From UHGV virus genome UHGV-1533542: a stretch of DNA of 30,878 nt; one strand, given 5' to 3'. Position 1 is the first letter of the stretch; the number at the start of each line of letters is the position of its first letter. A model generated the notes under the pieces. The model saw only the letters and a list, made by a program, of their open reading frames with translations. It was not told the DNA's origin and ran no database searches. The DNA comes from a virus. The position numbers and the translations under genes are program-made. Of the stretch, positions 1 to 26,807 are shown piece after piece.

Positions 1-369
1 AGATGCTCAGCAGAATCCCCCACATCCTGAAGGAGGTGTATTCAGACAGGCATCCCACCTGACTTCGAATGATGATTATTCATCACTATAGAGAGCAATG
101 ATTCTAAGTGTCATATGAAAGTTCCAATTGATATATATCAAACAAAATAACCCTGATTAATGAATTATTACGTTTATCATGTTAACTCATCATTATTACA
201 TCATCATTGTAAATAATTAAATTAACTTCCATAACATTAAAATATGTATCCACTGACGCTTTTTTACATAACGAAGAATTGACCATTTTGTCCTGTTGTG
301 CCTTAATGTAAGTACCGTCCACGGCGTGGGACATACTTCAAGGAACCTTTTGTGAGTCAGGCAACCAGT

Positions 370-543
370 ATGCGAAAACGACACCGATTTAACAGTCGCA
401 TGACCCGTATCGTACTGCTCATCAGCTTTATCTTCTTCTTTGGCCGTTTTATCTACTCGTCCGTCGGTGCCTGGCAGCACCATCAGAGCAAAAAAGAAGC
501 TCAGCAATCCACACTCTCCGTCGAATCACCGGTACAACGTTAG
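370..543 (+). CDS. possible small membrane peptide (57 aa from ATG 370; ORF opens at GTG 352)
   Basis: Basic N-terminus (MRKRHRFNSR) followed by one hydrophobic helix (IVLLISFIFFFGRFIY); AT-rich surroundings; overlapped by a 96-aa antisense ORF (217-507), so coding status and strand are uncertain. Confidence 0.2.
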   Translation: MRKRHRFNSRMTRIVLLISFIFFFGRFIYSSVGAWQHHQSKKEAQQSTLSVESPVQR

Positions 544-853
544 CGGTTACCTTCTCCACTCTCACAGAACATAACGGCACCTCGCTGTCGGATGCTTTTG
601 CTCTTTGAGATTATCAAAGCGGCAGATATTCTTTCATCTTAAATTTTACGTCTTTGTTCTGACTGAAGTTCATCCTGTTCGGCTGCGAAATAAATACATC
701 ATTAATACATATGTTGTGATGATGTATTTTTATAAATTATTTCCCGCATGAATTTTAATAAATTTAATCTATTCCTTTATACGCAATACATTTACTTTCC
801 TCTTTTGATGATCTTAAATGTCTCATTTTTCGTAATGTGTATAACAAGGAATA

Positions 854-1372
854 GTGATGAAATTTAAAAAATGTCTTCTGCCTGTGGCAATGTTAGCGTC
901 ATTCACTCTGGCAGGATGCCAGTCAAATGCTGATGATCATGCTGCCGATGTTTATCAAACCGATCAACTGAATACCAAACAAGAAACTAAAACCGTTAAT
1001 ATTATTTCCATTCTTCCCGCAAAAGTTGCCGTAGACAACGCCCAAAATAAACGGAACGCACAAGCCTTCGGCGCGCTTATTGGCGCTGTCGCTGGCGGTG
1101 TTATCGGCCACAACGTCGGGTCTGGCAGCAATTCCGGAACGACGGCAGGTGCAGTTGGCGGCGGAGCTGTAGGCGCGGCAGCGGGTTCGATGGTGAATGA
1201 TAAAACCTTAGTGGAAGGTGTTTCTTTAACATATAAGGAAGGCACCAAAGTGTATACCTCCACCCAGGTGGGTAAAGAGTGCCAGTTTACGACAGGTTTA
1301 GCCGTTGTTATTACCACGACGTATAACGAAACGCGTATTCAGCCAAATACCAAATGTCCTGAAAAGAGCTAA
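854..1372 (+). CDS. glycine-zipper outer-membrane lipoprotein (SlyB/YcfJ-like)
   Basis: SD AAGGAA upstream of GTG 854 / ATG 857; signal peptide ending in lipobox LAGC; Gly/Ala-rich glycine-zipper segment (GALIGAVAGGVIGHNVG...GAVGGGAVGAAAG) as in SlyB/YcfJ-type lipoproteins (from memory). Confidence 0.75.
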   Translation: MMKFKKCLLPVAMLASFTLAGCQSNADDHAADVYQTDQLNTKQETKTVNIISILPAKVAVDNAQNKRNAQAFGALIGAVAGGVIGHNVGSGSNSGTTAGAVGGGAVGAAAGSMVNDKTLVEGVSLTYKEGTKVYTSTQVGKECQFTTGLAVVITTTYNETRIQPNTKCPEKS

Positions 1373-1387
1373 TAATCAGGAGGAGTC

Positions 1388-1927
1388 ATGAAGAAAGTTT
1401 TTCTTTGCGCCATCTTAGCCTCCTTAAGCTATCCGGCTATCGCCTCATCATTGCAGGATCAACTCTCGGCTGTCGCAGAAGCGGAACAGCAAGGTAAAAA
1501 TGAAGAGCAAAGGCAGCATGACGAATGGGTCGCGGAGCGCAACAGGGAAATCCAGCAAGAGAAGCAACGTCGCGCAAACGCCCAGGCCGCGGCTAATAAA
1601 AGAGCGGCAACGGCAGCGGCGAATAAGAAAGCTCGTCAGGATAAACTGGACGCCGAAGCCACTGCGGACAAAAAACGCGATCAAAGTTATGAAGATGAGC
1701 TACGCAGCTTAGAGATTCAGAAACAAAAACTGGCGCTGGCGAAAGAAGAAGCCCGCGTCAAGCGCGAAAACGAATTTATCGATCAGGAACTGAAGCACAA
1801 AGCTGCGCAAACCGATGTGGTGCAATCTGAAGCTGACGCAAACAGAAATATGACTGAAGGCGGTCGCGATCTGATGAAAAGCGTGGGTAAAGCAGAAGAG
1901 AACAAATCGGACAGCTGGTTTAACTAA
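1388..1927 (+). CDS. secreted K/E/Q/A-rich coiled-coil protein, function unknown
   Basis: ATG preceded by strong SD AGGAGG; starts 16 nt after the lipoprotein gene (likely operon); signal peptide MKKVFLCAILASLSYPAIA; long charged helical body; terminator follows at 1972-1998. Confidence 0.7.
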   Translation: MKKVFLCAILASLSYPAIASSLQDQLSAVAEAEQQGKNEEQRQHDEWVAERNREIQQEKQRRANAQAAANKRAATAAANKKARQDKLDAEATADKKRDQSYEDELRSLEIQKQKLALAKEEARVKRENEFIDQELKHKAAQTDVVQSEADANRNMTEGGRDLMKSVGKAEENKSDSWFN

Positions 1928-1971
1928 GCGATGTCAGTAACTTCAAGCCTATGATTCGTGAGTATAAAAAA

Positions 1972-1998
1972 CCCTCTGTAGTAACAGAGGGTTTTGTT
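1972..1998. terminator. bidirectional intrinsic terminator
   Basis: 7-bp stem CCCTCTG/CAGAGGG with 6-nt loop, A-run 5' and T-run 3' (TTTTGTT); lies between convergent gene ends at 1927 (+) and 2146 (-). Confidence 0.65.
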
Positions 1999-2145
1999 CA
2001 TTCATAGTGCAGGGTTCAAATCATTCCCACTCAATTATTTACGAAAACCATAACCAATTGACTGATAACAACTTTCCTCAACCTAATTTTCACCGTACCG
2101 TTTTATATACCGTCACCGGAAATCAGTACCATGAAAAATGCCATG

Positions 2146-2628
2146 CTATCTTGTCAGGGTGTCATACTGTTTTTCGCAGACTCTTCCGGCTTCGGCTGCC
2201 CGGTCAGCATACTCTGCCAGTTGTCTGTTTCTCTCGAGAGATTTGCTGAGCACGTCGGCAAGCAAAACTCCGGTGTCTGCGGCTGACGTCCCAGCGCCGA
2301 CAATGGCGTTATACTGCCTGAGCTGCTCACGGATGGCAAAGAGTTGTTGCTGCAACCTGCCAGCGCGAGCGGCAGCATCAAGAGCATCATTGCGCGCCTG
2401 GTCGATTCTTTGCTGCGCTTCACGTTCATTGGTCACTTTCTCCTGTTCGTAGTACTGACGAACTTTGTCTTCTTCGTCTTTGCGGTCTTCTTCCGCCTGC
2501 GCATACCCGGCATCGTACTGGCGACTACCGTGTATATTCCAGGCAACCACTCCGACGATGAACAGAGCAGCAAGCATCACCACGATAACCAGTTGTTTCC
2601 AATATGCTTTTACGAATGCCCAGATCAT
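2146..2628 (-). CDS. Rz-like i-spanin
   Basis: ATG overlaps endolysin stop (ATGA); N-terminal TM helix ([18 protein letters not shown]) then charged coiled-coil domain; contains an embedded out-of-frame lipoprotein ORF; last gene of lysis cassette. Confidence 0.8.
2154..2390 (-). CDS. Rz1-like o-spanin (lipoprotein) embedded in Rz in another frame
   Basis: ATG at 2390 inside Rz; signal peptide with lipobox LAGC ([13 protein letters not shown]); short Pro-rich mature part; embedded arrangement as in lambda Rz/Rz1. Confidence 0.65.
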   Translation of the reverse strand: MMLLMLPLALAGCSNNSLPSVSSSGSITPLSALGRQPQTPEFCLPTCSANLSRETDNWQSMLTGQPKPEESAKNSMTP

Positions 2629-4172: not shown

Positions 4173-6929
4173 TTAGCTACTTTCAAGCATTGCAAGACGT
4201 GATTCTATTTTTTCGATTCTTCTACGCAAATAAGCTGACTCAAGCCATAAACACTGGTCAGTACGGATACCCCACCTATTTCCAGCCTTGCAAACCAGAG
4301 TTCGCTCTTCTGTTTCGTATTCTTCTTCCATCTCAATTTCGACGCCATCCACAACTTTAGTGATCATCCTTACCGCCATCACTGGCGCGTATTTATCATC
4401 CCATTCATCGTAACAGAGAAGGCCAAATCTGGTTCCATCAATCCCATGCGCGAGGAAAGTGTCTCTCACTTGTTGTGCTATAACACCAAAATGCCAGCGG
4501 GCACCATCTCCCTTTTCCCTGACGGCATCAAGCCAGCGAAAAGCTACAATCCTGATATCTCCCCATGCATCCAGAATTGCATCACCTTCATAACCACGAG
4601 ACATATACAAGCTGAGCTCACTTGTACTAATCGGTTCACTTTTTTCTCTACCATCTGATGTGTTTATCGAACCGTTCGCAGAATAAACCTGTGCCCATCT
4701 AAATGATGGTGCACCAAGAGATTTGCTGTTATCAATAATTGGTGAAAAATTACCTTTAATGGCAATATTTCCAGAGTCGCCGAGTATATTAATAACTGCA
4801 GAGTCATCACCATGGTTTTTTACGCTTAAGTTTCTTGATGAAATATTTATATCTTTGTTATATCCACTAACATTAATCCATCTTTTACCATCAATGTGAT
4901 ACCCGTAAATATTTCCGTCTGATTGTTCGTCAGGTGACTCTCTAAGAACAATAGCATCTGCTCCAGACGACCATTGTATTTTTGTATCTGTAGGCCTCCA
5001 GTTCTTTATAATGAACGAACCATCAGTAAACTCCGTTTTTATTTGTCTATTGTCTACAAATGCGTCTCTTGGTTTAAACTCACTTGTGTTAACGCTGCTC
5101 TGAAGATCAGAAGCAAAAAATCTAAGATTTCCTGTATAACCCTGAGTCTCGGTCTTGTTATACGCAATCATAATTCCATTTTCAAACTCAGATGATGTTA
5201 TTTTAACATCACGGCAATCACCAAAAATGCAATTTCCTTTATCAAATGTTGTTTGAGCTTTGAATTTATCAAACCTTAAATTACGAACAGGGAAACCATC
5301 AACCTCTAATGCAAAGGATGCAGGAAGGCCAAAGTATTCTGATGGCTTACCTGATGTATGATCAAGAGTAGTGGCTACTGTATTCTCAAAAACAGTCCCG
5401 CTAAAATTATTACCAATTGACGGAAACCTGATTACACTTATTGTACCTTGTATTTCAGGAGAAATACCAGATAGTGTGATGTTAGCTCCATCAAATGATG
5501 CATCTGAATACGTATATACTGATTCACTGCCAGCAATTTTAAACTGTTTAACTGAAGTTATTCTCATCGACTTTTTATGTTTAAATGTCACTGAGCTTTC
5601 AGTATTACTTACAAGATCAATCTGAGGGCTATTCCTTATCGCGATCCCTGACTGGACATAAACGTTATTAAAGTGCGTTTTTTCAGGATTTCCCTTCATT
5701 GAAAGGCTCCCGTCATTTTCTGTCAGTAGTAGTCCTTTTACCCTCCAATAGCCGACAATCTGTACGTTATCAATAACTGAATCACAGCTATCGTATACAT
5801 GCAACCCTATATCCCAGTTATCACCCAATGAATAAGAATCAGGGTTATTGTATCCTTCAATACCATTTTTACTTACCATTATTCTCAGATTGCGTAACTG
5901 TGATGCCCTGTTGATACTAACAGCTACGCTCATGGCTTTTGGTGTAGCAGGAGTAACACCTACAGAATCTTCATTTGTAAACTCAGTGAACTTACAAGAT
6001 ATCCCTTCAACAATTTTAACTGGTCTTTCATTAGAGATGTTAAAAAAATATTTGTTTTTTTCTCCATCACCAGTAAATACAAGATGGGTTCCTTTACTCC
6101 AACTTTTTAATAATCTTTCAGGCGCTGGTCTATATGTATCCCAGTAATCAATTCCATCACCAATTAATGAAACTCCAGGAGGCACATCTATATTCTTAGA
6201 AATCATCCATTTACCTGCAGGTATTCTAACGACACTTGCACCAGAATTTATCGCATTAATTAACCATTCAGACGCATCAACTTCAAAATTTAATGCAGCA
6301 TATCTTTGCTCAAACGGAACAAAATCAAGAGCGTTAACGTTATCCCGCATCTTATCCTGGAACGTTCGGTATACTGCTCCAGAACCATACTGAATAAACC
6401 AACCAAAACCACCAATAACTCCGGCGATTGCAGCATCGACATAATTACGCATTGAGCGATTATTTACAGCGTCCTGCTCAAGTGATGGATCAGCAAGGTT
6501 AGATATTCTGTTTTGCTTTGCATCGTAATATTTTGCAAGCAAAGATGGTTTCATCAATGCACGTCTGAACCACCCAAAACATTGCTGGATCAGCATCGTC
6601 AGGTAGTCAAAAGCATCTTCATGCACTTCGGGGAAAAATTTACCCTGATTGCGAAGGTCTGTCTCCTGCACTACATCAAGCACACGATCTATCGTAATTC
6701 GCCATCCAGCAGCAAGCGGAGACGGAAGAACAACAGAACCGCCACTATAAGTGCCCGCCCCAGTTACCGTATAACCGGTATCCAGAACCAATTCTGTTAC
6801 GTTCCCGTTCAGGTCAGACACCTGAACAACCAGGTCGGATTTTTTGAAAATACGGAAGGTATACGGAAATGATGTCGTAGCGCCGTTACCAGTGTATTCG
6901 TTGTGGTCAACTTCGGTTGAGACCGTCAT
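4173..6929 (-). CDS. tailspike / tail fibre with depolymerase-type body and C-terminal intramolecular chaperone (peptidase S74-like) domain
   Basis: 918-aa ORF with SD GGAGA 6 nt before ATG; C-terminal ~160 aa match, from memory, the endosialidase auto-chaperone domain (S-D-G-R-E-K cleavage motif, DAWGD, HFGVIAQQVRD, C-terminal RRRIEKIESRLAMLE); central Asn/Ser/Gly-rich repeats consistent with a beta-helix. Confidence 0.88.
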   Translation of the reverse strand: MTVSTEVDHNEYTGNGATTSFPYTFRIFKKSDLVVQVSDLNGNVTELVLDTGYTVTGAGTYSGGSVVLPSPLAAGWRITIDRVLDVVQETDLRNQGKFFPEVHEDAFDYLTMLIQQCFGWFRRALMKPSLLAKYYDAKQNRISNLADPSLEQDAVNNRSMRNYVDAAIAGVIGGFGWFIQYGSGAVYRTFQDKMRDNVNALDFVPFEQRYAALNFEVDASEWLINAINSGASVVRIPAGKWMISKNIDVPPGVSLIGDGIDYWDTYRPAPERLLKSWSKGTHLVFTGDGEKNKYFFNISNERPVKIVEGISCKFTEFTNEDSVGVTPATPKAMSVAVSINRASQLRNLRIMVSKNGIEGYNNPDSYSLGDNWDIGLHVYDSCDSVIDNVQIVGYWRVKGLLLTENDGSLSMKGNPEKTHFNNVYVQSGIAIRNSPQIDLVSNTESSVTFKHKKSMRITSVKQFKIAGSESVYTYSDASFDGANITLSGISPEIQGTISVIRFPSIGNNFSGTVFENTVATTLDHTSGKPSEYFGLPASFALEVDGFPVRNLRFDKFKAQTTFDKGNCIFGDCRDVKITSSEFENGIMIAYNKTETQGYTGNLRFFASDLQSSVNTSEFKPRDAFVDNRQIKTEFTDGSFIIKNWRPTDTKIQWSSGADAIVLRESPDEQSDGNIYGYHIDGKRWINVSGYNKDINISSRNLSVKNHGDDSAVINILGDSGNIAIKGNFSPIIDNSKSLGAPSFRWAQVYSANGSINTSDGREKSEPISTSELSLYMSRGYEGDAILDAWGDIRIVAFRWLDAVREKGDGARWHFGVIAQQVRDTFLAHGIDGTRFGLLCYDEWDDKYAPVMAVRMITKVVDGVEIEMEEEYETEERTLVCKAGNRWGIRTDQCLWLESAYLRRRIEKIESRLAMLESS

Positions 6930-8527: not shown

Positions 8528-9214
8528 ATGACTGCTAACGTAACCCCATCTGTTTTTCATTTTGAATCAGAGGCAACCATTCGAGCCATTGTTATTGATG
8601 GAAATCCTTGGTTTGTTGCCAAAGACGTTATTAAAGCTCTTCAACTGACAAACCCCACTATGTCAATAAAATCTCTTGATGATGATGAAAGGGCTAAATT
8701 TAACTTAGGCCGTCAAGGCGAAACCAATATTATCAACGAGTCAGGCCTCTACACACTGATCCTCCGCTGCCGCGATGCGGTGACACCAGGCACTATCCCC
8801 TACCGCTTTCGTAAATGGGTTACAGGTGAGGTTCTTCCTCAGATCCGCCGCACCGGAAGTTACATTAAAAACTCGCTCCCGCAGGAAGAACGCATAAAGA
8901 TGGTTGCCGACCAGGTAGCCAACGCCACGGCGTCAGCAGTAATGCAGGCGATGAAGATAGAGAACAAAACCTACAGTGCCCCGCTGAAGCCCGGCTACCG
9001 CAGCCTGATTCACTCGCCGTCTGGTGTTCTCGGCCTGACGGAGAACTCACTGCTGATGAATCTGCTGAACCAGTTACAGGAAGACGGGCACGACGTATCG
9101 GGCGCGGCGGCAGAGCTGACCACCATGTTCTGCTACATCGTCGGTGTGAGCAAATGCCTGCGTGATATCCAGACGCACGCGGAGTACATCAACGACAAAG
9201 CAGGATTCTTCTGA
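8528..9214 (+). CDS. Bro-N domain protein (phage antirepressor-like) with C-terminal domain paralogous to the 85-aa protein
   Basis: ATG 8528 with SD AAGGTG chosen over the RBS-less ATG 8375; N-terminal Bro-N signature (FHFESEATIRAIVIDGNPWFVAKDVIKALQL); hairpin with weak T-tract after stop. Confidence 0.85.
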   Translation: MTANVTPSVFHFESEATIRAIVIDGNPWFVAKDVIKALQLTNPTMSIKSLDDDERAKFNLGRQGETNIINESGLYTLILRCRDAVTPGTIPYRFRKWVTGEVLPQIRRTGSYIKNSLPQEERIKMVADQVANATASAVMQAMKIENKTYSAPLKPGYRSLIHSPSGVLGLTENSLLMNLLNQLQEDGHDVSGAAAELTTMFCYIVGVSKCLRDIQTHAEYINDKAGFF

Positions 9215-9223
9215 CAGAACGGC

Positions 9224-9247
9224 GGCACATGGATGTGCCTTTAAATA
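9224..9247 (+). terminator. possible intrinsic terminator after the Bro-N gene
   Basis: GGCACA-TGGA-TGTGCC hairpin followed by TTTAAATAATT; T-tract is weak. Confidence 0.35.
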
Positions 9248-9287
9248 ATTCTGTACAGATTGCAGACTGTTGGTGAATAGCGTACTA

Positions 9288-9302
9288 TTACCTCAAGGGT
9301 AA
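9288..9302. promoter_or_regulatory. ATTACC-N5-GGTAAT dyad, copy d (TTACC-TCAAG-GGTAA)
   Basis: Perfect TTACC-N5-GGTAA about 60 bp upstream of the small ORF / toxin-like gene pair. Confidence 0.5.
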
Positions 9303-9362
9303 ACGGATTGGTTTCATTTTTATTAATCCGTGTAATGAACTTATGAGATATGAGGTAATGTC

Positions 9363-9542
9363 ATGCGAAACGAAAAATTGCAGATGCGTAGAGCGCAAGC
9401 TGCCGCAAGACGTTCTTTCAATGGAAGCGTAGAGTGCGTAAAAGTTACTATGACAAAAGATCACGCAAGTCGCGTATCCCGCGCTTTCTTTGATTCTCGT
9501 AACAATAAGGAAAATTATGAGTTCGTCTGCGTCGCAGAATGA
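9363..9542 (+). CDS. small ORF (59 aa) upstream of and overlapping the toxin-like gene; antitoxin candidate
   Basis: ATG 9363 preceded by SD GAGG (gaggtaatgtcATG); basic 59-aa product; overlaps next gene start by 26 nt in another frame; below the ORF-track size cutoff; coding status unproven. Confidence 0.3.
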   Translation: MRNEKLQMRRAQAAARRSFNGSVECVKVTMTKDHASRVSRAFFDSRNNKENYEFVCVAE

Positions 9543-10062
9543 TAAAAATCAAATTGTCAGATATAAGGGTCGAGTATTGCATACGCAAAATTTCTCGGCC
9601 CTTTGTGCATCTGATCTTGAGCTGAAGAAAGTATCTGATGCCTTTACCCAGTATTGGAAAACGGGATACCATCCATCTCTTGGTAAAGATGCTGCATTTG
9701 CTCGTCCGACAGAAATGCTTAAACTAAATGTCAGGCATACTCATGTCGATAACCAAGACTATATTCCAGAAGATAGTGATAAAAAACACACTGGTAAAAA
9801 ATCATCTTGGGATGCATGGAAAAATATAGCGTCTGTGCAAGTAAAATGCATACCAACAAGTGATTGCTTTTTAGTTTATTCGGTAAATCACAATCGTGAT
9901 GCGCTGGTTATGTTTTTTGTTGACGCAGATGCCCACAACATAACTGAGCAAGAAGAGTTTAAAGAGGCAGCAATCACTATCAGTTATCAATTCTTTGAGA
10001 AAACAAAAACAGAACCAATGCCTTTAGAAGAAGATCTTTTTTCTGATAAATGGAAGGAATAA
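9517..10062 (+). CDS. 181-aa protein with YafO-like toxin features (candidate mRNA-interferase-type toxin)
   Basis: ATG 9517 with SD AAGGA (ORF opens at TTG 9490); by-eye similarity to my recollection of E. coli YafO (F.QY.K.G..P..GKDA, L.V.HTHV, F/HLVY...AL....D..H); strong terminator follows. Confidence 0.6.
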   Translation: MSSSASQNDKNQIVRYKGRVLHTQNFSALCASDLELKKVSDAFTQYWKTGYHPSLGKDAAFARPTEMLKLNVRHTHVDNQDYIPEDSDKKHTGKKSSWDAWKNIASVQVKCIPTSDCFLVYSVNHNRDALVMFFVDADAHNITEQEEFKEAAITISYQFFEKTKTEPMPLEEDLFSDKWKE

Positions 10063-10086
10063 GCCCGCGTTGCGGGCTTTTTTGTG
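10063..10086 (+). terminator. intrinsic terminator of the plus-strand accessory unit
   Basis: Directly after stop 10062: stem GCCCGC/GCGGGC, 3-nt loop, then TTTTTTGTG. Confidence 0.8.
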
Positions 10087-10120
10087 TCTGCGGATTCCCG
10101 CCCGGGCGGCGGTGGCATTC

Positions 10121-10148
10121 GTTAAAAACAAGGCCGCGAAAGCGGCCT
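10121..10148 (-). terminator. intrinsic terminator ending the long minus-strand virion operon
   Basis: Stem AGGCCGC/GCGGCCT with GAAA loop; on the minus strand it is followed by TTTTT; lies just downstream of the 46-aa ORF stop and abuts palindrome 10149-10160. Confidence 0.6.
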
Positions 10149-10160
10149 GTGACATGTCAC
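10149..10160. repeat. perfect 12-bp palindrome GTGACATGTCAC, copy i
   Basis: Exact palindrome between the stop of the 46-aa ORF and the minus-strand terminator; identical copies at 27433-27444 and 29698-29709. Confidence 0.8.
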
Positions 10161-10167
10161 GCTCACG

Positions 10168-10308
10168 TTATGACAAGCCTATGTACCCTGCTACACCAGA
10201 TAATATCAAAATAACTGCAACAGCAAATTCGCCATCGTCAATGATACATTTACGGTTCATAACGCCAAGTGCAACAAGCGCAAACACAACAAGAATAAAA
10301 GCAATCAT
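10168..10308 (-). CDS. 46-aa two-helix membrane micropeptide, last gene of the virion operon
   Basis: ATG 9 nt after the stop of the 824-aa gene with SD AAGGA; product MIAFILVVFALVALGVMNRKCIIDDGEFAVAVILILSGVAGYIGLS has two hydrophobic segments; not in the ORF track (below size cutoff). Confidence 0.45.
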   Translation of the reverse strand: MIAFILVVFALVALGVMNRKCIIDDGEFAVAVILILSGVAGYIGLS

Positions 10309-10317
10309 TTCTCATCC

Positions 10318-12792
10318 TTATTGCGGAGTGACATCCTGTGGTCGCCACCAGTATGTCTGGTTAAACTCTTTCTTCGAACGTTGCTCCATTTTACGCAAAT
10401 AGCCTGGTGAAAAATACTCCTGCATCTGGTTAAAGATCATGTGATCGAGAGCCGCCTTTAAGTACCAGAGATTCGCACCTGGCATCAAACCTTTCCCCAG
10501 CTTCACCAGATCACCACCAGTCTGCTCACTCTTCCCTTCCACAGCATTTAACGGTATGCCCTGAGCAATCTTCACTACGTCATCAACCAGACCAGCTACC
10601 GGGCCAAGCATCGACGCCAGCGCGCCGCTTCCGTACCTAGTGTGATCTGACAATAAAAAGTCACCGTAAAGGCCAAGACCACCACCTTTCAGTAGAGCAC
10701 CAAGCCAAAATTTAGCAGCATCTTCTCCTGTCATCTCGCGAGGATTACGACCAGACGCAAGGTCGTTAAGTTGCTGCGACAAAGCGCCAAGAATGGTCGT
10801 ACTGGCAATAAACGTCGCAATATATGCCGCACGCCCACCAGCAGACGGCATACCCATAGCGCGTGACCAGTGACGCATAACTACCGAGATAGGGAACGAT
10901 TTAAACAGGAAAACACTTCTCGTTAATTCACCTTTCCATGTTCCACGCTGAATACCAGAACCGGTTATCAGTTGCTCACGTGCTCCCGGTGTAATAACAG
11001 CCATATCAACTTCTTCAGTTACGGCACCGAGAAGTTTACGCATTGCCTCAAATTTCACGCGTTCAGGCTCACCAAGATGTTTAACTGCTGAATCAGGGAT
11101 ACGCATAATGCTTTCCGGTGTCAGCATCGTATTATTGCCGTTCCCCCAGTCCTCCTGTTGCGCCAGCTTCCATACGCTCCAGTCTGTTTCAGTAATCCCT
11201 TTGCTTTTCAGGATACGAAAATCAGAGTCATCGAGGCTACGAAGGTCTGGTGTCCGTGACACTACCTCTCCCAGGCTTCCCATCATTGTTACGCCATAGG
11301 CGCGCTTGTGCGCATCTGACCATGCTGTAAGCCCACTGGCACGCATTACCGCCGTTGCCGCCCAACGAGACACAGACGGCCCCATATTATCCATTGCCCA
11401 GCGGTTAACACTGCCAAGTAGAGATTCCATCGCCAGACCAGCGCGGCGCGCCCGCGCAAGCTCAGTACGGTTCGTTGGGTCCATAGCTTCAAGCTGGTTG
11501 CGGAATAACTGGTTCATTGGAAGGTTGGTCACCTTCGCAGACAGATACATGGTTCCAAGATCAGAGAACGATGACAGCAACGCGGATCCTAGTCGGCTGG
11601 CAACCAGCCAGTTGCGGATATTGTCAGACCAGCGCGCGATGTGCGGATTCGCTACAGGCTGTGTCTTTCCGGAAATAAAGTTGTACAGATTCTCTGTGTT
11701 GTTCGCCAGCCGCTCGACTTTACCGGTTTTACTCGGGTTAGCTGTTGCCGTTTCTGCCTTCACCTGATCAAGAAGAGAGCGGAAAACATGATCGGGGTTT
11801 GGGCCATATGTTTCCACCAGTGCAATATCTTTACTGATACCTTCCAGGTGACCGACCATGATTTCCCATAGAGAGCGATCGCCATAAAGTTGCTGATATT
11901 GCAGATAGGAATCTGCATCTTTGAAATGTATCTGTCGTGATGCATTACCCCGGTTAGCACGTGCGCCGGAAATTCGCATTCCGGTATCAGTAAGCTTATT
12001 CAGCCCACCAGTAGCGATCGTGTTATAAGCCTCTCCAAGAAATGCAGACAACTCGGCATCGTTCATCAGTTGTCCATCGACTCGGGTATAATATTTGCGA
12101 TCCAGCTTACCTATAACATCGCTAACCCACTTATCCTTTGATACCGCCCCAACCTTTTCCATAGAATGATGTTGAGGGATCCCCCAGTTTTCGAGATAGC
12201 CAATGTCCCCACCAGCATCATTAAACCGGCGGCGCAGTAGCTCTGTCACTTCTCTCCACGCCTTAGCACCTTTTCTTGCTTTAGCATTGCCAGTATTTTG
12301 CCCTCGCATTTCATATACCAGGTCACGCACGCCAGCTTCATCTTCAAACAGGCCAAAAAAGCGAGGATCAACTGCTTCAAATGCCTCCTGCAATTGACTC
12401 AATGCATAATCACGAGTGGCTTTTGTTCTGGATTCAACAGAGAGGAAATTCGATTTACCGTCTGCATTAAAAGCAATAGTACGGTTAAGAGCGCCAAGTT
12501 TCCCATCAGCCCCTTGATAGCTATTGATAAATTTATCCAATCTCTGACGTGCGGCTATAGTGAGAGCCACACGACGTTTCTTTAATGCCGCTTCTCGCTG
12601 TAATTCTTCAGATGCCAATTGTGCTGCACGATACAACCGTTCTGATTCGGAAAGTTGTCGCCACGACATCGGATCATCACGAGCAATGGAGCGCATATTT
12701 CGATAAATGCGGTCTTCAATGTTCTGTATTTCTCGCGCCGTTAACGTGCGCTGCGCCGCCTGCTGGACCGCTTGTATACATTCCTGTCTCAT
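10318..12792 (-). CDS. large internal virion / ejection protein (824 aa)
   Basis: Long ORF in the virion operon; position equivalent to internal core/ejection proteins of podoviruses; function by position only. Confidence 0.75.
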   Translation of the reverse strand: MRQECIQAVQQAAQRTLTAREIQNIEDRIYRNMRSIARDDPMSWRQLSESERLYRAAQLASEELQREAALKKRRVALTIAARQRLDKFINSYQGADGKLGALNRTIAFNADGKSNFLSVESRTKATRDYALSQLQEAFEAVDPRFFGLFEDEAGVRDLVYEMRGQNTGNAKARKGAKAWREVTELLRRRFNDAGGDIGYLENWGIPQHHSMEKVGAVSKDKWVSDVIGKLDRKYYTRVDGQLMNDAELSAFLGEAYNTIATGGLNKLTDTGMRISGARANRGNASRQIHFKDADSYLQYQQLYGDRSLWEIMVGHLEGISKDIALVETYGPNPDHVFRSLLDQVKAETATANPSKTGKVERLANNTENLYNFISGKTQPVANPHIARWSDNIRNWLVASRLGSALLSSFSDLGTMYLSAKVTNLPMNQLFRNQLEAMDPTNRTELARARRAGLAMESLLGSVNRWAMDNMGPSVSRWAATAVMRASGLTAWSDAHKRAYGVTMMGSLGEVVSRTPDLRSLDDSDFRILKSKGITETDWSVWKLAQQEDWGNGNNTMLTPESIMRIPDSAVKHLGEPERVKFEAMRKLLGAVTEEVDMAVITPGAREQLITGSGIQRGTWKGELTRSVFLFKSFPISVVMRHWSRAMGMPSAGGRAAYIATFIASTTILGALSQQLNDLASGRNPREMTGEDAAKFWLGALLKGGGLGLYGDFLLSDHTRYGSGALASMLGPVAGLVDDVVKIAQGIPLNAVEGKSEQTGGDLVKLGKGLMPGANLWYLKAALDHMIFNQMQEYFSPGYLRKMEQRSKKEFNQTYWWRPQDVTPQ

Positions 12793-18126: not shown

Positions 18127-20597
18127 CAGAATCCCCCAACAGTAAGGCGAGGAATAACGGCAAGAACAGACAGTGGCAACGGGTCAAGCTGACGGATTCT
18201 TACACGTCCGTTTTTGCCCCAGTTACTGTCCAGTTTCACTTCTACTTTTCCGGTAGCATCATCAACAGAATCATCGTAGAACTCGAATTCACGCTGTGGA
18301 TATTCGTACCATTTACCGCCGGGCGTAGTCGCCCAGATGCCGCGACTGGCATTCACAACCAGAGTAACGGACGGGATCACCTGTTTTTTGTCCAGCAGCG
18401 TTTCCTGTCCGCTAATGTTGATATCCAGTGTTTCGAATTCAGCAGTTATTGGCAGGCCGATGTGCACAACAGCCCCCGGTGATTCCAGCGTGACGGCACC
18501 TCCGGAAACCACTTTCTGTGGTTCCACGTTCGCATCAGAGAGAATGTTTACGGTCTGGCCTTCAAGATGAGACATGCCTCCAAATGTCCGGCGCGCCATC
18601 TGCCAGTTCGTGGTGGCCGCATTCCTGAGGGATGGCGGGACGTTCCTGTTAGCACGAACCACTACAGCGGTATTGCTGGTTACAGAAATAATGTCGCAAC
18701 GTAATTCTTTTGACACTTCATCGCCAGTATCAGGATCAGTTCCGGTATAAGGGAACTGTAGTTGCGCACCAACATCACTACTGGTGAAGTACGCACCACC
18801 AGAAACACTGATTGTATATTCCGCGCGGTAATCCCATTCACCAGAACCACCAGTGATGGTCATCGTTCTGTCAGACGTATTTCTTCCATCATAGCTAAGG
18901 CCAGAATCAACAAAGAAAGCATCTTCATCGCTGGTAAATAAACGGCTGGACAGTCTCTCGATGTATCTCACTGTTTGCCCGTTAACGGTTCTGTTAACGA
19001 CGAAATACACCGCATCTTCATTGCCTTCGCTGATACTGCATGTGCTTTCATATTTTCCGGTACTGGATTGTGGTGCCCATGCAAAAACCTGCTGATCACG
19101 CAAATAGGTCATCACCAGTAATTTACCGTCATCACGAATGCAGAAGGCGCTGGAGTAAGGGACAATCGAGAAGCACCAGTCAACAATGCTGTGCTTCTGA
19201 AAAAGATGATTGGCAAGGATGGTCAGGTCGTTCCCCTGATAGCCGTCAACATCGAATGAGTAGGCCAGATCACGGACAACACTGCCTTTCTCCTGGACGA
19301 ACAGAGCAATATTCGCCACGGCAATTGGTGGGACATTGCTCGAGCCATTTGATCCCTGAGAGCTGAATGCAAATGATGATGGGGTAAGCACTTTGTTCTG
19401 GTCGCCAGTGATGACGTACTCACCTCCGGAAGTCAGCGCCACCAGCGAACCAACATCAATCAGGTGACGGATCTCATTAACCTGACGCCCGGCATAGGTG
19501 TAGATAATTCTGTCGTCATCCTGCGTAGGATTGCTTTTGCCAAAATCCTTATAATCCCCGGTACGGCTGGCCCAGATAGTCTGAGGGAACGCAGTCGATG
19601 CGGCGAAGTAAAGGCGTTGTTGATAATAAACAACAGTGCCAGGATAACCGTTAATACTGTTCCAGGCATATTTAGCCCATTTATAGCTGGCATTATCCTC
19701 GCCAACTACCTGCGAAGGGATATAGGAAATCACCTCGGCAGTTGCAGTAGTTCCATTTGCAGCAGAGATACGGGCAATGCCAAAACCACTGTGCAGATAC
19801 TCCCACTCAATGCCGGTATCATCATCACCGGATCCGCCCCAGCCATCCCATGATGTGCCTTCTGTATGCGAAGGGCGCAAAGTGCCTGTTTTGCCTGCTG
19901 TAACGGCGCGATAGTAGTTACTGTCTGCACGGCGAATATCGCCAATCGACGTACTCTTACTGGTTTCCCATACCGGCACAGAATCCACTGCAGGCTGTTC
20001 CAGATAGAACAATTTGCCTACCTGCTCCGCGCCAAAAATTGAGGCGCTTGCCGTTAACGTAATTGTCCCGGTGCTGGCGCTGGCATAAACCGTCACTGAC
20101 TCGTCAATATTGATATCTTCAAATGGCCCGTTCTTCGTTACCACATCAACCAGTTGCCAGTTGTCATGCGCATAGCGGCGCAACTCTTTCGGCGGGTATG
20201 CCGGATGAACCAGCGTAAGCACGTCTGCGCTTTGCGTGAATTTAATTCGGAACAGATCGGCTTCAGTATATGGCGTGGCAATTTCATAAATAACATTGCT
20301 GCTGTTCAGCACCAACGCACCATCTTTGATAACGCGCATGTACTGGTGTCCGAACTCCAGAGCATAAGTCTGAACCGTCGAGAACTGGAACGGGATCAGG
20401 CGGCATTTCCGATTTGGGTATTTGGCGGCACCGACAAAACGCGTACCAGGTCGATTCTCAACGCCGCCATACTGCCGCACGATAAAGTTATCGCACTTGC
20501 GCAATGCCACCTGGTACTTCGCCATGTCGATACGACCGTACAACGACGGTCCAATCTCACCACCGGCAAAGCTGGGCTGGATCCAACTGATAGCCAT
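18126..20597 (-). CDS. tail tube / nozzle-like protein (823 aa)
   Basis: ATG overlaps upstream stop (ATGA); size and position match the tail tubular protein B analogue of podoviruses; no motif-level confirmation. Confidence 0.7.
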   Translation of the reverse strand: MAISWIQPSFAGGEIGPSLYGRIDMAKYQVALRKCDNFIVRQYGGVENRPGTRFVGAAKYPNRKCRLIPFQFSTVQTYALEFGHQYMRVIKDGALVLNSSNVIYEIATPYTEADLFRIKFTQSADVLTLVHPAYPPKELRRYAHDNWQLVDVVTKNGPFEDINIDESVTVYASASTGTITLTASASIFGAEQVGKLFYLEQPAVDSVPVWETSKSTSIGDIRRADSNYYRAVTAGKTGTLRPSHTEGTSWDGWGGSGDDDTGIEWEYLHSGFGIARISAANGTTATAEVISYIPSQVVGEDNASYKWAKYAWNSINGYPGTVVYYQQRLYFAASTAFPQTIWASRTGDYKDFGKSNPTQDDDRIIYTYAGRQVNEIRHLIDVGSLVALTSGGEYVITGDQNKVLTPSSFAFSSQGSNGSSNVPPIAVANIALFVQEKGSVVRDLAYSFDVDGYQGNDLTILANHLFQKHSIVDWCFSIVPYSSAFCIRDDGKLLVMTYLRDQQVFAWAPQSSTGKYESTCSISEGNEDAVYFVVNRTVNGQTVRYIERLSSRLFTSDEDAFFVDSGLSYDGRNTSDRTMTITGGSGEWDYRAEYTISVSGGAYFTSSDVGAQLQFPYTGTDPDTGDEVSKELRCDIISVTSNTAVVVRANRNVPPSLRNAATTNWQMARRTFGGMSHLEGQTVNILSDANVEPQKVVSGGAVTLESPGAVVHIGLPITAEFETLDINISGQETLLDKKQVIPSVTLVVNASRGIWATTPGGKWYEYPQREFEFYDDSVDDATGKVEVKLDSNWGKNGRVRIRQLDPLPLSVLAVIPRLTVGGF

Positions 20598-26730: not shown

Positions 26731-26807
26731 GTGGCATTAGCTCAGTTGGACAGAGCAACCGCCTTCTAAGCGGTTGGTCGCAGGTTCGAATCCTGCATGC
26801 CACGCCA
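26731..26807 (+). tRNA. tRNA-Arg (anticodon UCU), phage-encoded
   Basis: Cloverleaf read by eye: acceptor GTGGCAT/ATGCCAC, D-arm GCTC..GAGC, anticodon stem ACCGC/GCGGT with loop CTTCTAA (anticodon TCT), T-arm GCAGG-TTCGAAT-CCTGC, encoded CCA; body close to but distinct from E. coli argU as I recall it. Confidence 0.88.

Follow-up and report, generated by a model that had tools for sequence, protein, structure and literature searches.

The window, a stretch of 30,878 nucleotides from the virus genome UHGV-1533542, consists of E. coli chromosomal DNA up to position 2035 and of prophage DNA beyond it. The chromosomal part carries two AT-rich spacers, the genes yfgG, yfgH and yfgI, a predicted terminator and the attachment core of the prophage, which is entered from its lysis end (Table 1). 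The genes were already known, as were their location and the attachment site.

Table 1. Features of the left part of the window and the evidence for each.
Feature	Position	Strand	Evidence
Divergent pdeF(yfgF)/yfgG spacer	1-351	.	CP122448 annotation, K-12 layout, GC
pdeF sigma-70 promoter ATGACA-18-TATAGT	85-114	-	promoter scan
Perfect FNR-type palindrome TTGATATATATCAA, upstream of pdeF promoter	128-141	.	sole match in the window; 0.11 expected by chance
yfgG promoter TTGACC-17-CTTAAT	279-307	+	read from sequence
yfgG, 63-aa small membrane protein (DUF2633)	352-543	+	PF11119, E 3.6e-28
yfgG-yfgH spacer	544-853	.	32.9% GC
Weak terminator-like hairpin and T-tract after yfgG	575-600	+	terminator scan; consensus match only
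Candidate yfgHI core promoter TTTACT-17-TTAAAT	791-819	+	alignment of 8 spacers
yfgH, SlyB-like outer-membrane glycine-zipper lipoprotein	854/857-1372	+	PF05433; SlyB match
yfgI, exported DUF5384 protein	1388-1927	+	PF17358, E 4e-62
Host bidirectional intrinsic terminator, predicted	1966-1998	.	folds on both strands; inverted repeat
attL core AATCATTCCCACTCAAT	2019-2035	.	attL/attB/attR three-way alignment; reverse complement of published core
guaA last four codons and stop (IEWE*)	2021-2035	-	translation
phiV10/epsilon15-type (Uetakevirus) prophage, ~28.8 kb of ~39.9 kb	2036-30878	.	sequence matches and CP122448
Rz-like i-spanin (DUF2514)	2146-2628	-	PF10721; phrog_312
Embedded Rz1-like lipoprotein ORF	within 2154-2429	-	phrog_11621; ORF list

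Comparison of positions 1-2035 with E. coli K-12 gave a single collinear blastn segment with 97.6% identity and one gap, whose K-12 counterpart begins one base ahead of the pdeF start codon and finishes at the guaA 3' end. The annotated gene order of the prophage-free K-12 MG1655 is pdeF-yfgG-yfgH-yfgI-guaA, with a gap of 92 bp between yfgI and guaA. YfgG is identical to its K-12 counterpart b2504, and YfgH and YfgI each differ at one residue. The segment was found in each of the 5,426 complete E. coli genomes searched, with a probe coverage of at least 80% in 5,399. In CP122448, which is 100% identical to positions 1-2150, pdeF ends at locus position 20000 and the window starts at 20001, the first base of the window lying immediately upstream of the pdeF start codon. 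Compared with the K-12 b2504-b2506 locus (yfgG-yfgH-yfgI), the difference lies in the downstream neighbour, which is guaA in K-12 and a prophage here, guaA following about 39.9 kb later. Positions 1-2035 are almost certainly core E. coli chromosome between pdeF and guaA, with the prophage integrated at a 17-bp core in guaA, as judged from sequence comparison. A sequence-only reading of this DNA had left open whether yfgH and yfgI belong to the host at the site of integration or are cargo of the prophage. The first alternative is borne out by the universal presence of both genes in the 5,426 genomes and by their locus in prophage-free K-12; the second falls, since the genes occupy the same position in MG1655, where the prophage is lacking, a finding that the reading had itself named as its refutation.

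The homology to K-12 ends after position 2035, which places the boundary at 2035/2036. A 17-bp core is common to attL, attB and attR, with exact copies in K-12 attB and CP122448 attR. Reverse-complemented, it reads attgagtgggaatgatt, which has been verified experimentally as the att core at the guaA 3' end for vB_EcoP_ZX5, phiV10 and epsilon15 (PMC9782041). Because the attL core matches this published one, the boundary can be set from this end alone; the earlier statement to the contrary is wrong, as the K-12 comparison together with the published core defines it. No second copy of the core was found elsewhere in the window with up to three mismatches allowed. The right end of the prophage, with the integrase and attR, lies beyond the end of the window, and the full prophage is present in CP122448 with the integrase adjoining guaA. 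In locus L003 of that genome, the core occupies positions 8892-8908 and the tyrosine integrase gene 9099-10349, and guaA is intact. Core and integrase are 190 bp apart at this attR, in agreement with the published distance (PMC9782041). The same host-prophage junction was detected in 551 of the 5,426 genomes, and where half-length matches were sampled, guaA was annotated beneath the match in each case (8/8).

A 22-kb prophage probe matched phiv142-3, HEMP4 and phiV10 with 96-97% identity over about 75% of its length. Since about one quarter of the probe is unmatched in phiV10 and phiv142-3, the prophage is a mosaic relative of these phages, with no difference in the attachment site. The attB of phiV10, epsilon15 and vB_EcoP_ZX5 has the same 17-bp core, and their integrase end is proximal to guaA with the lysis cassette opposite, as for this prophage. 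In the proposed pathway, a temperate podovirus of the phiV10/epsilon15 type would have undergone tyrosine-integrase recombination at the core, which overlaps the guaA stop codon. Integration would have left one copy of the core at attL and the other adjoining the intact guaA, about 39.9 kb away, with the phage providing a replacement terminator for guaA.

Folding of the hairpin between yfgI and the attachment core gave -22.3 kcal/mol (z-score -6.7) on one strand and -18.2 kcal/mol (z-score -5.6) on the other. The GC-rich hairpin is flanked by an A6 run and by TTTTGTT, giving a U-run on both transcribed strands, and is identical in K-12 together with its A and T runs. Folding was used here instead of a simple terminator scanner, which failed to pick up the hairpin, likely because the stem can extend into the A/T runs. 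The strong fold on both strands, set between an A-run and a T-run, agrees with the bidirectional terminator proposed earlier at the end of the operon, and the Rz-like and embedded Rz1-like genes on the - strand beyond it agree with the view that this end faces a lysis cassette. By its sequence, this is the predicted host terminator common to the convergent yfgI and guaA in prophage-free strains. In the lysogenized arrangement it would keep transcription of the phage late (lysis) operon from running on into yfgI in antisense.

The first 850 positions had been described as AT-rich with only short doubtful ORFs. This description holds for two blocks, the pdeF/yfgG spacer (34.8% GC) and the yfgG-yfgH spacer, compared with 48.3% for the whole window, but it breaks down in between, where positions 301-600 have about 50% GC and yfgG is a real gene. 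YfgG matched PF11119 with 97.6 bits against a cut-off of 25. The FNR-type palindrome may be linked to FNR-dependent expression of pdeF. A Ni/Co tolerance phenotype has been reported for yfgG, which is needed for tolerance of these metals (PMC6338753). The hexamers of the pdeF and yfgG promoters are listed for yfgF and yfgG, respectively, in Table 1 of a genomic SELEX study (PMC3946193). Within the yfgG-yfgH spacer, the best conserved block among eight spacers from Escherichia, Citrobacter and relatives is the sigma-70-like element at 791-819, whose conservation suggests that it may serve as the yfgHI promoter. A near-palindrome in the same spacer (692-729) was considered as an operator and rejected, as it is unconserved even among close Escherichia species. 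An Rfam scan of positions 1-2700 detected no RNA family at E values up to 1.

H-NS-type silencing had also been suggested for this region. In partial support of that suggestion, the same SELEX study places an H-NS site in the yfgF(pdeF)/yfgG spacer; it also lists the spacer with constitutive RpoD promoters, and H-NS sites occur in 36% of such spacers (PMC3946193). Binding is thus an ordinary property of spacers and no sign of foreign DNA. A stronger version holds that the AT-rich blocks are H-NS-silenced DNA and that the yfgHI operon is normally held off by H-NS. The 33-35% GC of the spacers and the SELEX site would fit, as would the low basal expression of yfgH and its strong induction by outer-membrane stress (bioRxiv 10.64898/2025.12.22.696046). 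Yet the SELEX mark concerns the pdeF/yfgG spacer, with no such mark found for the one upstream of yfgH, the marked spacer contains constitutive RpoD promoters, and H-NS binding would not in any case make the DNA foreign. We consider this version unlikely.

The annotated start of yfgH is GTG at 854, and the conserved start is ATG at 857, with Citrobacter having GTA in place of GTG. YfgH contains a lipobox LAGC at residues 18-21, followed by a glycine-zipper 2TM domain, for which PF05433 scored 33.2 bits (cut-off 24.2). It matched SlyB (PDB 7OJF) over the full length with an E value of 4.5e-10, query residues 8-163 aligning with chain residues 6-154. The two proteins are alike in their lipobox, glycine-zipper 2TM hairpin and beta-rich C-terminal part. 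SlyB (7OJF/7OJG) is stress-induced and forms rings around nanodomains of lipid and OMPs, and YfgH has been described as a stress-induced SlyB-like glycine-zipper outer-membrane lipoprotein that stabilises the outer membrane, with rings similar to those of SlyB predicted in AlphaFold3 models (bioRxiv 10.64898/2025.12.22.696046). They differ in that the C-terminal part of YfgH contains a pair of invariant cysteines (142 and 167, numbered from the ATG start), where the aligned SlyB has none, and in the DUF5384 gene that always lies downstream of yfgH. The two also have different suppressors (clsA versus Mla) and do not cross-complement (bioRxiv 10.64898/2025.12.22.696046). Assignment of YfgH to TraT, the plasmid surface-exclusion and complement-resistance lipoprotein, was rejected, the PF05818 score of 28.1 bits being below the gathering score of 31; the likeness is weak and confined to YfgH residues 56-161 (PDB 9FS5, E 0.038). 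No NCBIfam family scored above cut-off for any of five proteins searched.

YfgI matched PF17358 with 209 bits over profile positions 1-145 of 145. It has a Sec signal peptide ending AIA/SS (cleavage at the slash) and 39% charged residues. In its mature part, a variable spacer of Ala/Gln/Lys/Arg separates a conserved N-terminal SLQDQLSAV from a C-terminal block of 80 residues with strong conservation, and the whole is predicted to form one continuous helix of about 23 nm (AlphaFold2, single sequence, pLDDT 92.6). The protein had been called a coiled coil, a label that the heptad pattern does not bear out. Hydrophobic residues filled at most 5 of 8 a/d positions in any 28-residue window, a value reached by 28% of shuffles in what is a crude in-house measure and not a standard coiled-coil predictor, and strongly hydrophobic residues make up 15.6% of the protein. 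A single-alpha-helix signature was likewise missing, with opposite-charge pairs at i/i+4 at shuffle level, and no solved structure matched YfgI at E values up to 1.

The gap between yfgH and yfgI is 15 nt, with an AGGAGG ribosome-binding site at 1378-1383 and no terminator. This tight + strand pair, with the lipobox and PF05433 in the first protein and DUF5384 in the second, upholds the earlier description of a two-gene operon encoding a lipoprotein and an exported charged protein. The spacing, and literature that treats the pair as an operon, suggest that the two genes are co-transcribed. Homologues of yfgH and yfgI were neighbours in each of the 26 loci with sufficient flank, a set that extends from Escherichia through Haemophilus and Pseudomonas duriflava to an alphaproteobacterial MAG. 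We tentatively propose, as a possibility that we rate below even, that YfgI is a dedicated periplasmic partner of YfgH and that the pair forms one mobile envelope-protection module. Speculatively, YfgI might be a strut or tether that links YfgH assemblies to the cell wall or inner membrane.

Phage P7 carries a paralogous pair, upf50.5/upf50.0, whose proteins are 69% and 47% identical to YfgH and YfgI, respectively, over the full length. The two-gene arrangement is the same as in yfgH-yfgI, and signal peptides are annotated on both P7 proteins. Paralogues were also found on about 190 plasmids, most of them of P1-like size, and a YfgI homologue is present on P1-like phage-plasmids. The P7 copies are true phage-plasmid cargo, flanked by the immI region and the late tail-tube operon, whereas the copy in the window is chromosomal and core. 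The earlier intuition of envelope morons therefore applies to the type of gene, as P7 and P1-like phage-plasmids illustrate, and not to the copy in the window.

These paralogues also bear on the deep history of the pair, which could be an old horizontally acquired islet, possibly brought in by an earlier mobile element and fixed in Escherichia and Citrobacter. Such an origin concerns deep history only and is compatible with the assignment of the segment to host DNA. Its favourable points include the paralogues on P7 and the plasmids, the AT-rich spacers flanking the pair, and the retention of the pair while its neighbours change wholly: cca/tsaD-type genes in Xenorhabdus, glycogen phosphorylase and PntA in Haemophilus, MCP and PBP in Pantoea, and still others in Pseudomonas duriflava and an Acidisoma MAG. 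The patchy distribution in other genera leaves room for an ancient horizontal origin, and orthologues have been reported in S. Typhi and not in S. Typhimurium (PMC11619404). However, the coding GC of 47-50% resembles the E. coli background, and synteny is kept across Escherichia species and Citrobacter. The window contains no second att copy and no flanking direct repeats of note, and the ORF list shows no integrase or transposase remnant in 1-2035. On balance, an islet origin appears improbable to us.

The assignment of yfgH and yfgI to the host chromosome also has to be weighed against their resemblance to bor/lom-like moron cargo just beyond the lysis cassette of the adjacent prophage. The lipoprotein and helical-protein genes adjoin the Rz/Rz1 end in opposite orientation, and in lambda the envelope lipoprotein gene bor likewise adjoins the lysis cassette in opposite orientation. 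YfgH and YfgI gave full-length PHROG matches (phrog_1277 at 7e-111 and phrog_1094 at 2e-104, respectively), the phage record TL-2011b includes both genes, and P7 has its true paralogous pair. Yet the likeness to lambda bor and lom is one of position alone: the genes in the window lie outside the att core, occur in 5,426 of 5,426 genomes compared with 551 for the junction, and occupy the same locus in K-12, which is prophage-free there. They are absent from the genome records of phiV10, phiv142-3, HEMP4, ZX5 and PAS61, and neither Bor nor Lom turned up in the Pfam scan. Of the 50,697 phage records, the prophage-derived TL-2011b entry was the only one in which positions 1-2018 were found. This RefSeq record (NC_019445) runs past attL into about 3.5 kb of host sequence (bases 41273-44784); its extra DNA also holds yfgG and the 5' part of pdeF, which marks it as host flank. 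The PHROG matches likely stem from the mis-bounded TL-2011b record and from P7/P1-like paralogues, and with these likely sources traced we rejected them as a sign of phage origin. A cargo origin of the window copy therefore has next to no chance of being correct.

The databases nevertheless hold a trap. Proteins of the YfgH type bear the label "DNA methyltransferase" both in PHROGs and in RefSeq annotation of phages, a mislabel in the cases of phrog_1277 and P7 upf50.5, and with such labels and the host flank in TL-2011b an automated pipeline could call these genes phage-borne. Recognition of yfgH and yfgI as core envelope genes guards against reading them as phage virulence or fitness cargo, and the start of phage DNA at 2036 is now set, which is useful for analysis of the remaining window. 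The preprint on YfgH makes no mention of yfgI (bioRxiv 10.64898/2025.12.22.696046). The strict pairing of the two genes, P7 included, suggests that YfgI belongs in the story of YfgH and outer-membrane stress. If YfgI is a partner of YfgH, the nalidixic-acid sensitivity of yfgI mutants might, speculatively, reflect an envelope defect and not one in DNA repair.

Two origins had been left standing for the left flank by the sequence-only reading: host DNA at the integration site, or prophage cargo. A megablast search matched positions 1-2150 in 5,426/5,426 complete E. coli genomes, and the RefSeq names of the flank genes are yfgG, yfgH and yfgI. In K-12 MG1655, where the prophage is absent, the order is pdeF, yfgG, yfgH, yfgI and, 92 bp further on, the convergent guaA. 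Positions 1-2035 align to K-12 as one segment with 97.6% identity, interrupted by one gap. The YfgG proteins are the same in both, and there is one substitution in YfgH and one in YfgI. The window opens on the base immediately upstream of the start codon of pdeF. The presence of yfgH and yfgI at the same position in a prophage-free strain, which the sequence-only reading had itself named as the refuting observation, refutes cargo and establishes host DNA: these are known core E. coli genes beside a known attachment site.

The prophage boundary, thought impossible to fix without the other end, lies at 2035/2036, set by comparison with K-12, to which homology ends after 2035, and by a published 17-bp core. 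This core, AATCATTCCCACTCAAT, was common to all sites in a three-way alignment of the window junction (attL), the empty K-12 site (attB) and the far junction (attR) of strain 85.0412 (CP122448), whose sequence has 100% identity with window positions 1-2150. The reverse complement of the core, attgagtgggaatgatt, reads as the end of guaA, its last four codons and the stop (IEWE*). PMC9782041 confirmed the same core for vB_EcoP_ZX5 with PCR and sequencing, and describes it as proved earlier for phiV10 and epsilon15. The second copy of the core in CP122448 lies directly against an intact guaA, and the tyrosine integrase begins 190 bp from this copy, equal to the distance in PMC9782041. By record coordinates that prophage spans ~39.9 kb; the window holds its lysis-proximal 28.8 kb, ends ~11 kb before attR, and has ORF coordinates that agree with the CP122448 annotation throughout. 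The nearest phages were phiv142-3, HEMP4 and phiV10 (96-97% identity over ~75% of a 22-kb probe). Of the 5,426 genomes, 551 fully matched a 200-bp probe with the junction at its centre, and all eight rows sampled from the remainder matched the host half only, with guaA annotated under the match.

Features of the left flank and the adjoining prophage in window coordinates, with the related gene pair of phage P7
Feature	Position	Strand	Remarks
AT-rich block	1-351		34.8% GC
yfgF (pdeF) promoter	114-85	-	ATGACA-18-TATAGT
FNR-type palindrome	128-141		TTGAT-N4-ATCAA
50-aa ORF, probably spurious	182-334	-	WP_000017553.1
yfgG promoter	279-307	+	TTGACC-17-CTTAAT
yfgG, 63-codon ORF	352-543		DUF2633, Pfam E 3.6e-28; 49.5% GC
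AT-rich block two	544-853		32.9% GC
Candidate yfgHI core promoter	791-819		TTTACT-17-TTAAAT
yfgH, lipoprotein gene	854/857-1372	+	lipobox LAGC; glycine-zipper 2TM domain PF05433 above cut-off (Pfam)
YfgH Cys142 codon	1280-1282
YfgH Cys167 codon	1355-1357
yfgI	1388-1927	+	DUF5384, Pfam E 4e-62
Strong hairpin	1966-1998	both	-22.3 and -18.2 kcal/mol
attL core	2019-2035		17 bp
DUF2514/Rz-like spanin	2146-2628	-	embedded Rz1-like lipoprotein ORF
Tail-fibre gene	4455-6929	-	flagged incomplete by PGAP in the identical strain
YafO-family toxin gene	9517-10062	+	beside a BRO-N gene
tRNA-Arg(TCT) gene	26731-26807	+
P7 upf50.5/upf50.0	L032 (phage P7) 4476-5540		NC_050152.1 49507-50571

The observation as a whole was partly confirmed. 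Its anatomy was largely right: the AT-rich blocks (whole-window composition, 48.3% GC), the closely spaced plus-strand pair yfgH and yfgI in the ORF listing, the hairpin, and the minus-strand lysis cassette (spanin, GH19 endolysin, holins) adjoining the flank on its right were all found. The exception was 1-850, described as holding only doubtful short ORFs, where yfgG is a real gene. The prophage also carries tail-fibre, YafO-family toxin and tRNA genes (Table). Between pdeF and yfgG, PGAP/RefSeq lists a 50-aa 'hypothetical protein' that overlaps the yfgG promoter; it is probably spurious, being unannotated in K-12 and lying in 33% GC DNA. The annotated yfgH start is GTG 854, and since a Citrobacter orthologue has GTA at that codon and retains ATG 857, the latter is the likelier start.

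Upstream of the pdeF promoter, the perfect palindrome TTGATATATATCAA fits the FNR consensus and is the sole match in the window (0.11 expected by chance); presumably it is linked to anaerobic pdeF expression. When the yfgG-yfgH spacer was aligned across eight sequences from Escherichia, Citrobacter and relatives, good conservation was confined to the candidate yfgHI core promoter and the ribosome-binding site/start region. Genomic SELEX assigned the yfgF/yfgG spacer a promoter for each gene and an H-NS mark (PMC3946193). The mark partly backs the proposed H-NS-type silencing; the AT-rich spacers are ordinary promoter spacers and not marks of foreign DNA. Other Escherichia/Citrobacter genomes have yfgI and guaA separated by extra DNA of ~0.8, 4.8 and 2.8 kb (L008 6538-7354; L009 6538-11337; L014 6535-9304), and one Citrobacter carries ~1.6 kb extra between yfgG and yfgH (L013 3886-5470); both junctions may be recurrent insertion points.

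The bidirectional terminator suggested to face the lysis end was borne out. No shuffle folds as well as the hairpin on either strand, and the hairpin lies between A6 and TTTTGTT; a consensus terminator scan did not pick it up, possibly because the stem can extend into the A/T runs. As the hairpin and both runs are identical in K-12, between the convergent yfgI and guaA, this is a host element now facing the phage lysis end, where it would putatively also keep late-operon transcription from running through antisense to yfgI. At attR the phage has an intrinsic terminator of its own, a hairpin with a U-run that follows the restored guaA stop after 47 nt (L003, the 85.0412 attR locus, 8953-8976). 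In its left arm, CCCTCTGT, this terminator does not differ from the host one, a hint that the attP flank diverged from a copy of a bacterial guaA downstream region.

Of the flank genes, yfgG is necessary and sufficient for Ni/Co tolerance by RB-TnSeq and Dub-seq, a phenotype conserved in Klebsiella (PMC6338753). According to a 2025 preprint, YfgH co-fractionates with the outer membrane, is induced on knock-down of LpxC, LptD or BamA, protects against SDS+EDTA and was modelled as SlyB-like rings, and yfgH is suppressed by clsA mutations (bioRxiv 10.64898/2025.12.22.696046). A full-length match of YfgH to PDB 7OJF (E 4.5e-10) supports the SlyB relationship at the sequence level. Unlike the aligned SlyB sequence, YfgH homologues have two cysteines in the C-terminal part, Cys142 and Cys167, which do not vary across a range that runs from Escherichia to an Acidisoma MAG; as a candidate disulfide they would set YfgH apart from SlyB. 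Mutants of yfgI show 7% survival on nalidixic acid (PMC3536626). The two genes have been treated as an operon, whose S. Typhi orthologue srgIL is SdiA-regulated whereas E. coli yfgHI is not, and S. Typhimurium lacks an orthologue (PMC11619404). A putative functional coupling of YfgI to YfgH is the sole remaining thread of the locus.

Mature YfgI was predicted as one continuous helix (residues 2-158, ~23 nm; AlphaFold2 without alignment, pLDDT 92.6, pTM 0.48). A simple coiled coil, the earlier label, is argued against by composition (39% charged, 15.6% strongly hydrophobic), by heptad a/d occupancy at shuffle level and by i/i+4 opposite-charge pairs, which likewise showed no excess over shuffles. 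Alignment of distant taxa instead outlines a conserved N-terminal motif, a variable Ala/Gln/Lys/Arg spacer and a strongly conserved C-terminal block of ~80 residues, a more specific pattern than that of a generic coiled coil. The Haemophilus haemolyticus homologue (L029 5758-6264) has LTGC in its signal peptide and may be a lipoprotein in that species instead of being soluble in the periplasm.

With one genome scanned per species, YfgI relatives turned up at 28 loci, with a YfgH homologue immediately upstream in 26/26 with enough upstream DNA. The pair occurs in Xenorhabdus, Pantoea, Pseudomonas duriflava, H. haemolyticus, two Proteobacteria MAGs and an Acidisoma MAG, where pdeF, yfgG and guaA are not its neighbours; the flanking genes checked were unrelated, and mobile-element genes were not found among them. 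Contigs of Fredinandcohnia humi and Brevibacterium (L016, L024; 274 and 336 bp; 99-100% E. coli YfgI, coverage <1) are almost certainly E. coli contamination.

YfgH and YfgI also match PHROG families over their full length. Window 1-2018 is present among phage records only in TL-2011b, entered twice (JQ011317, NC_019445), a prophage that an O103:H25 strain carries at guaA (PMC3293862). This 'complete genome' overshoots attL by ~3.5 kb (NC_019445.1/JQ011317.1, 41273-44784), taking in yfgI, yfgH (there called 'DNA methyltransferase'), yfgG and a 5' portion of pdeF, and probably seeds phrog_1277 and phrog_1094 with host proteins. The PHROG matches likely come from this mis-bounded record together with real phage paralogues. 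In phage P7, adjacent upf50.5 and upf50.0 are 69% and 47% identical to YfgH and YfgI and lie with the immI region on one side and the late tail-tube operon on the other; upf50.5 is 'DNA methyltransferase' in RefSeq, although the original annotation note gives an outer membrane lipoprotein. YfgI homologues are further found in P1-like phage records (e.g. SJ46, RCS47, JL22, phi456) and on ~190 E. coli and Salmonella plasmids, mostly 80-120 kb and non-mobilizable. Such a pair can therefore be phage-plasmid cargo, although the window's copy is not. The PHROG family of YfgH also bears the "DNA methyltransferase" label, a mislabel; with the mis-bounded TL-2011b record this makes a database trap, in which automated annotation could take host genes for phage-borne ones.
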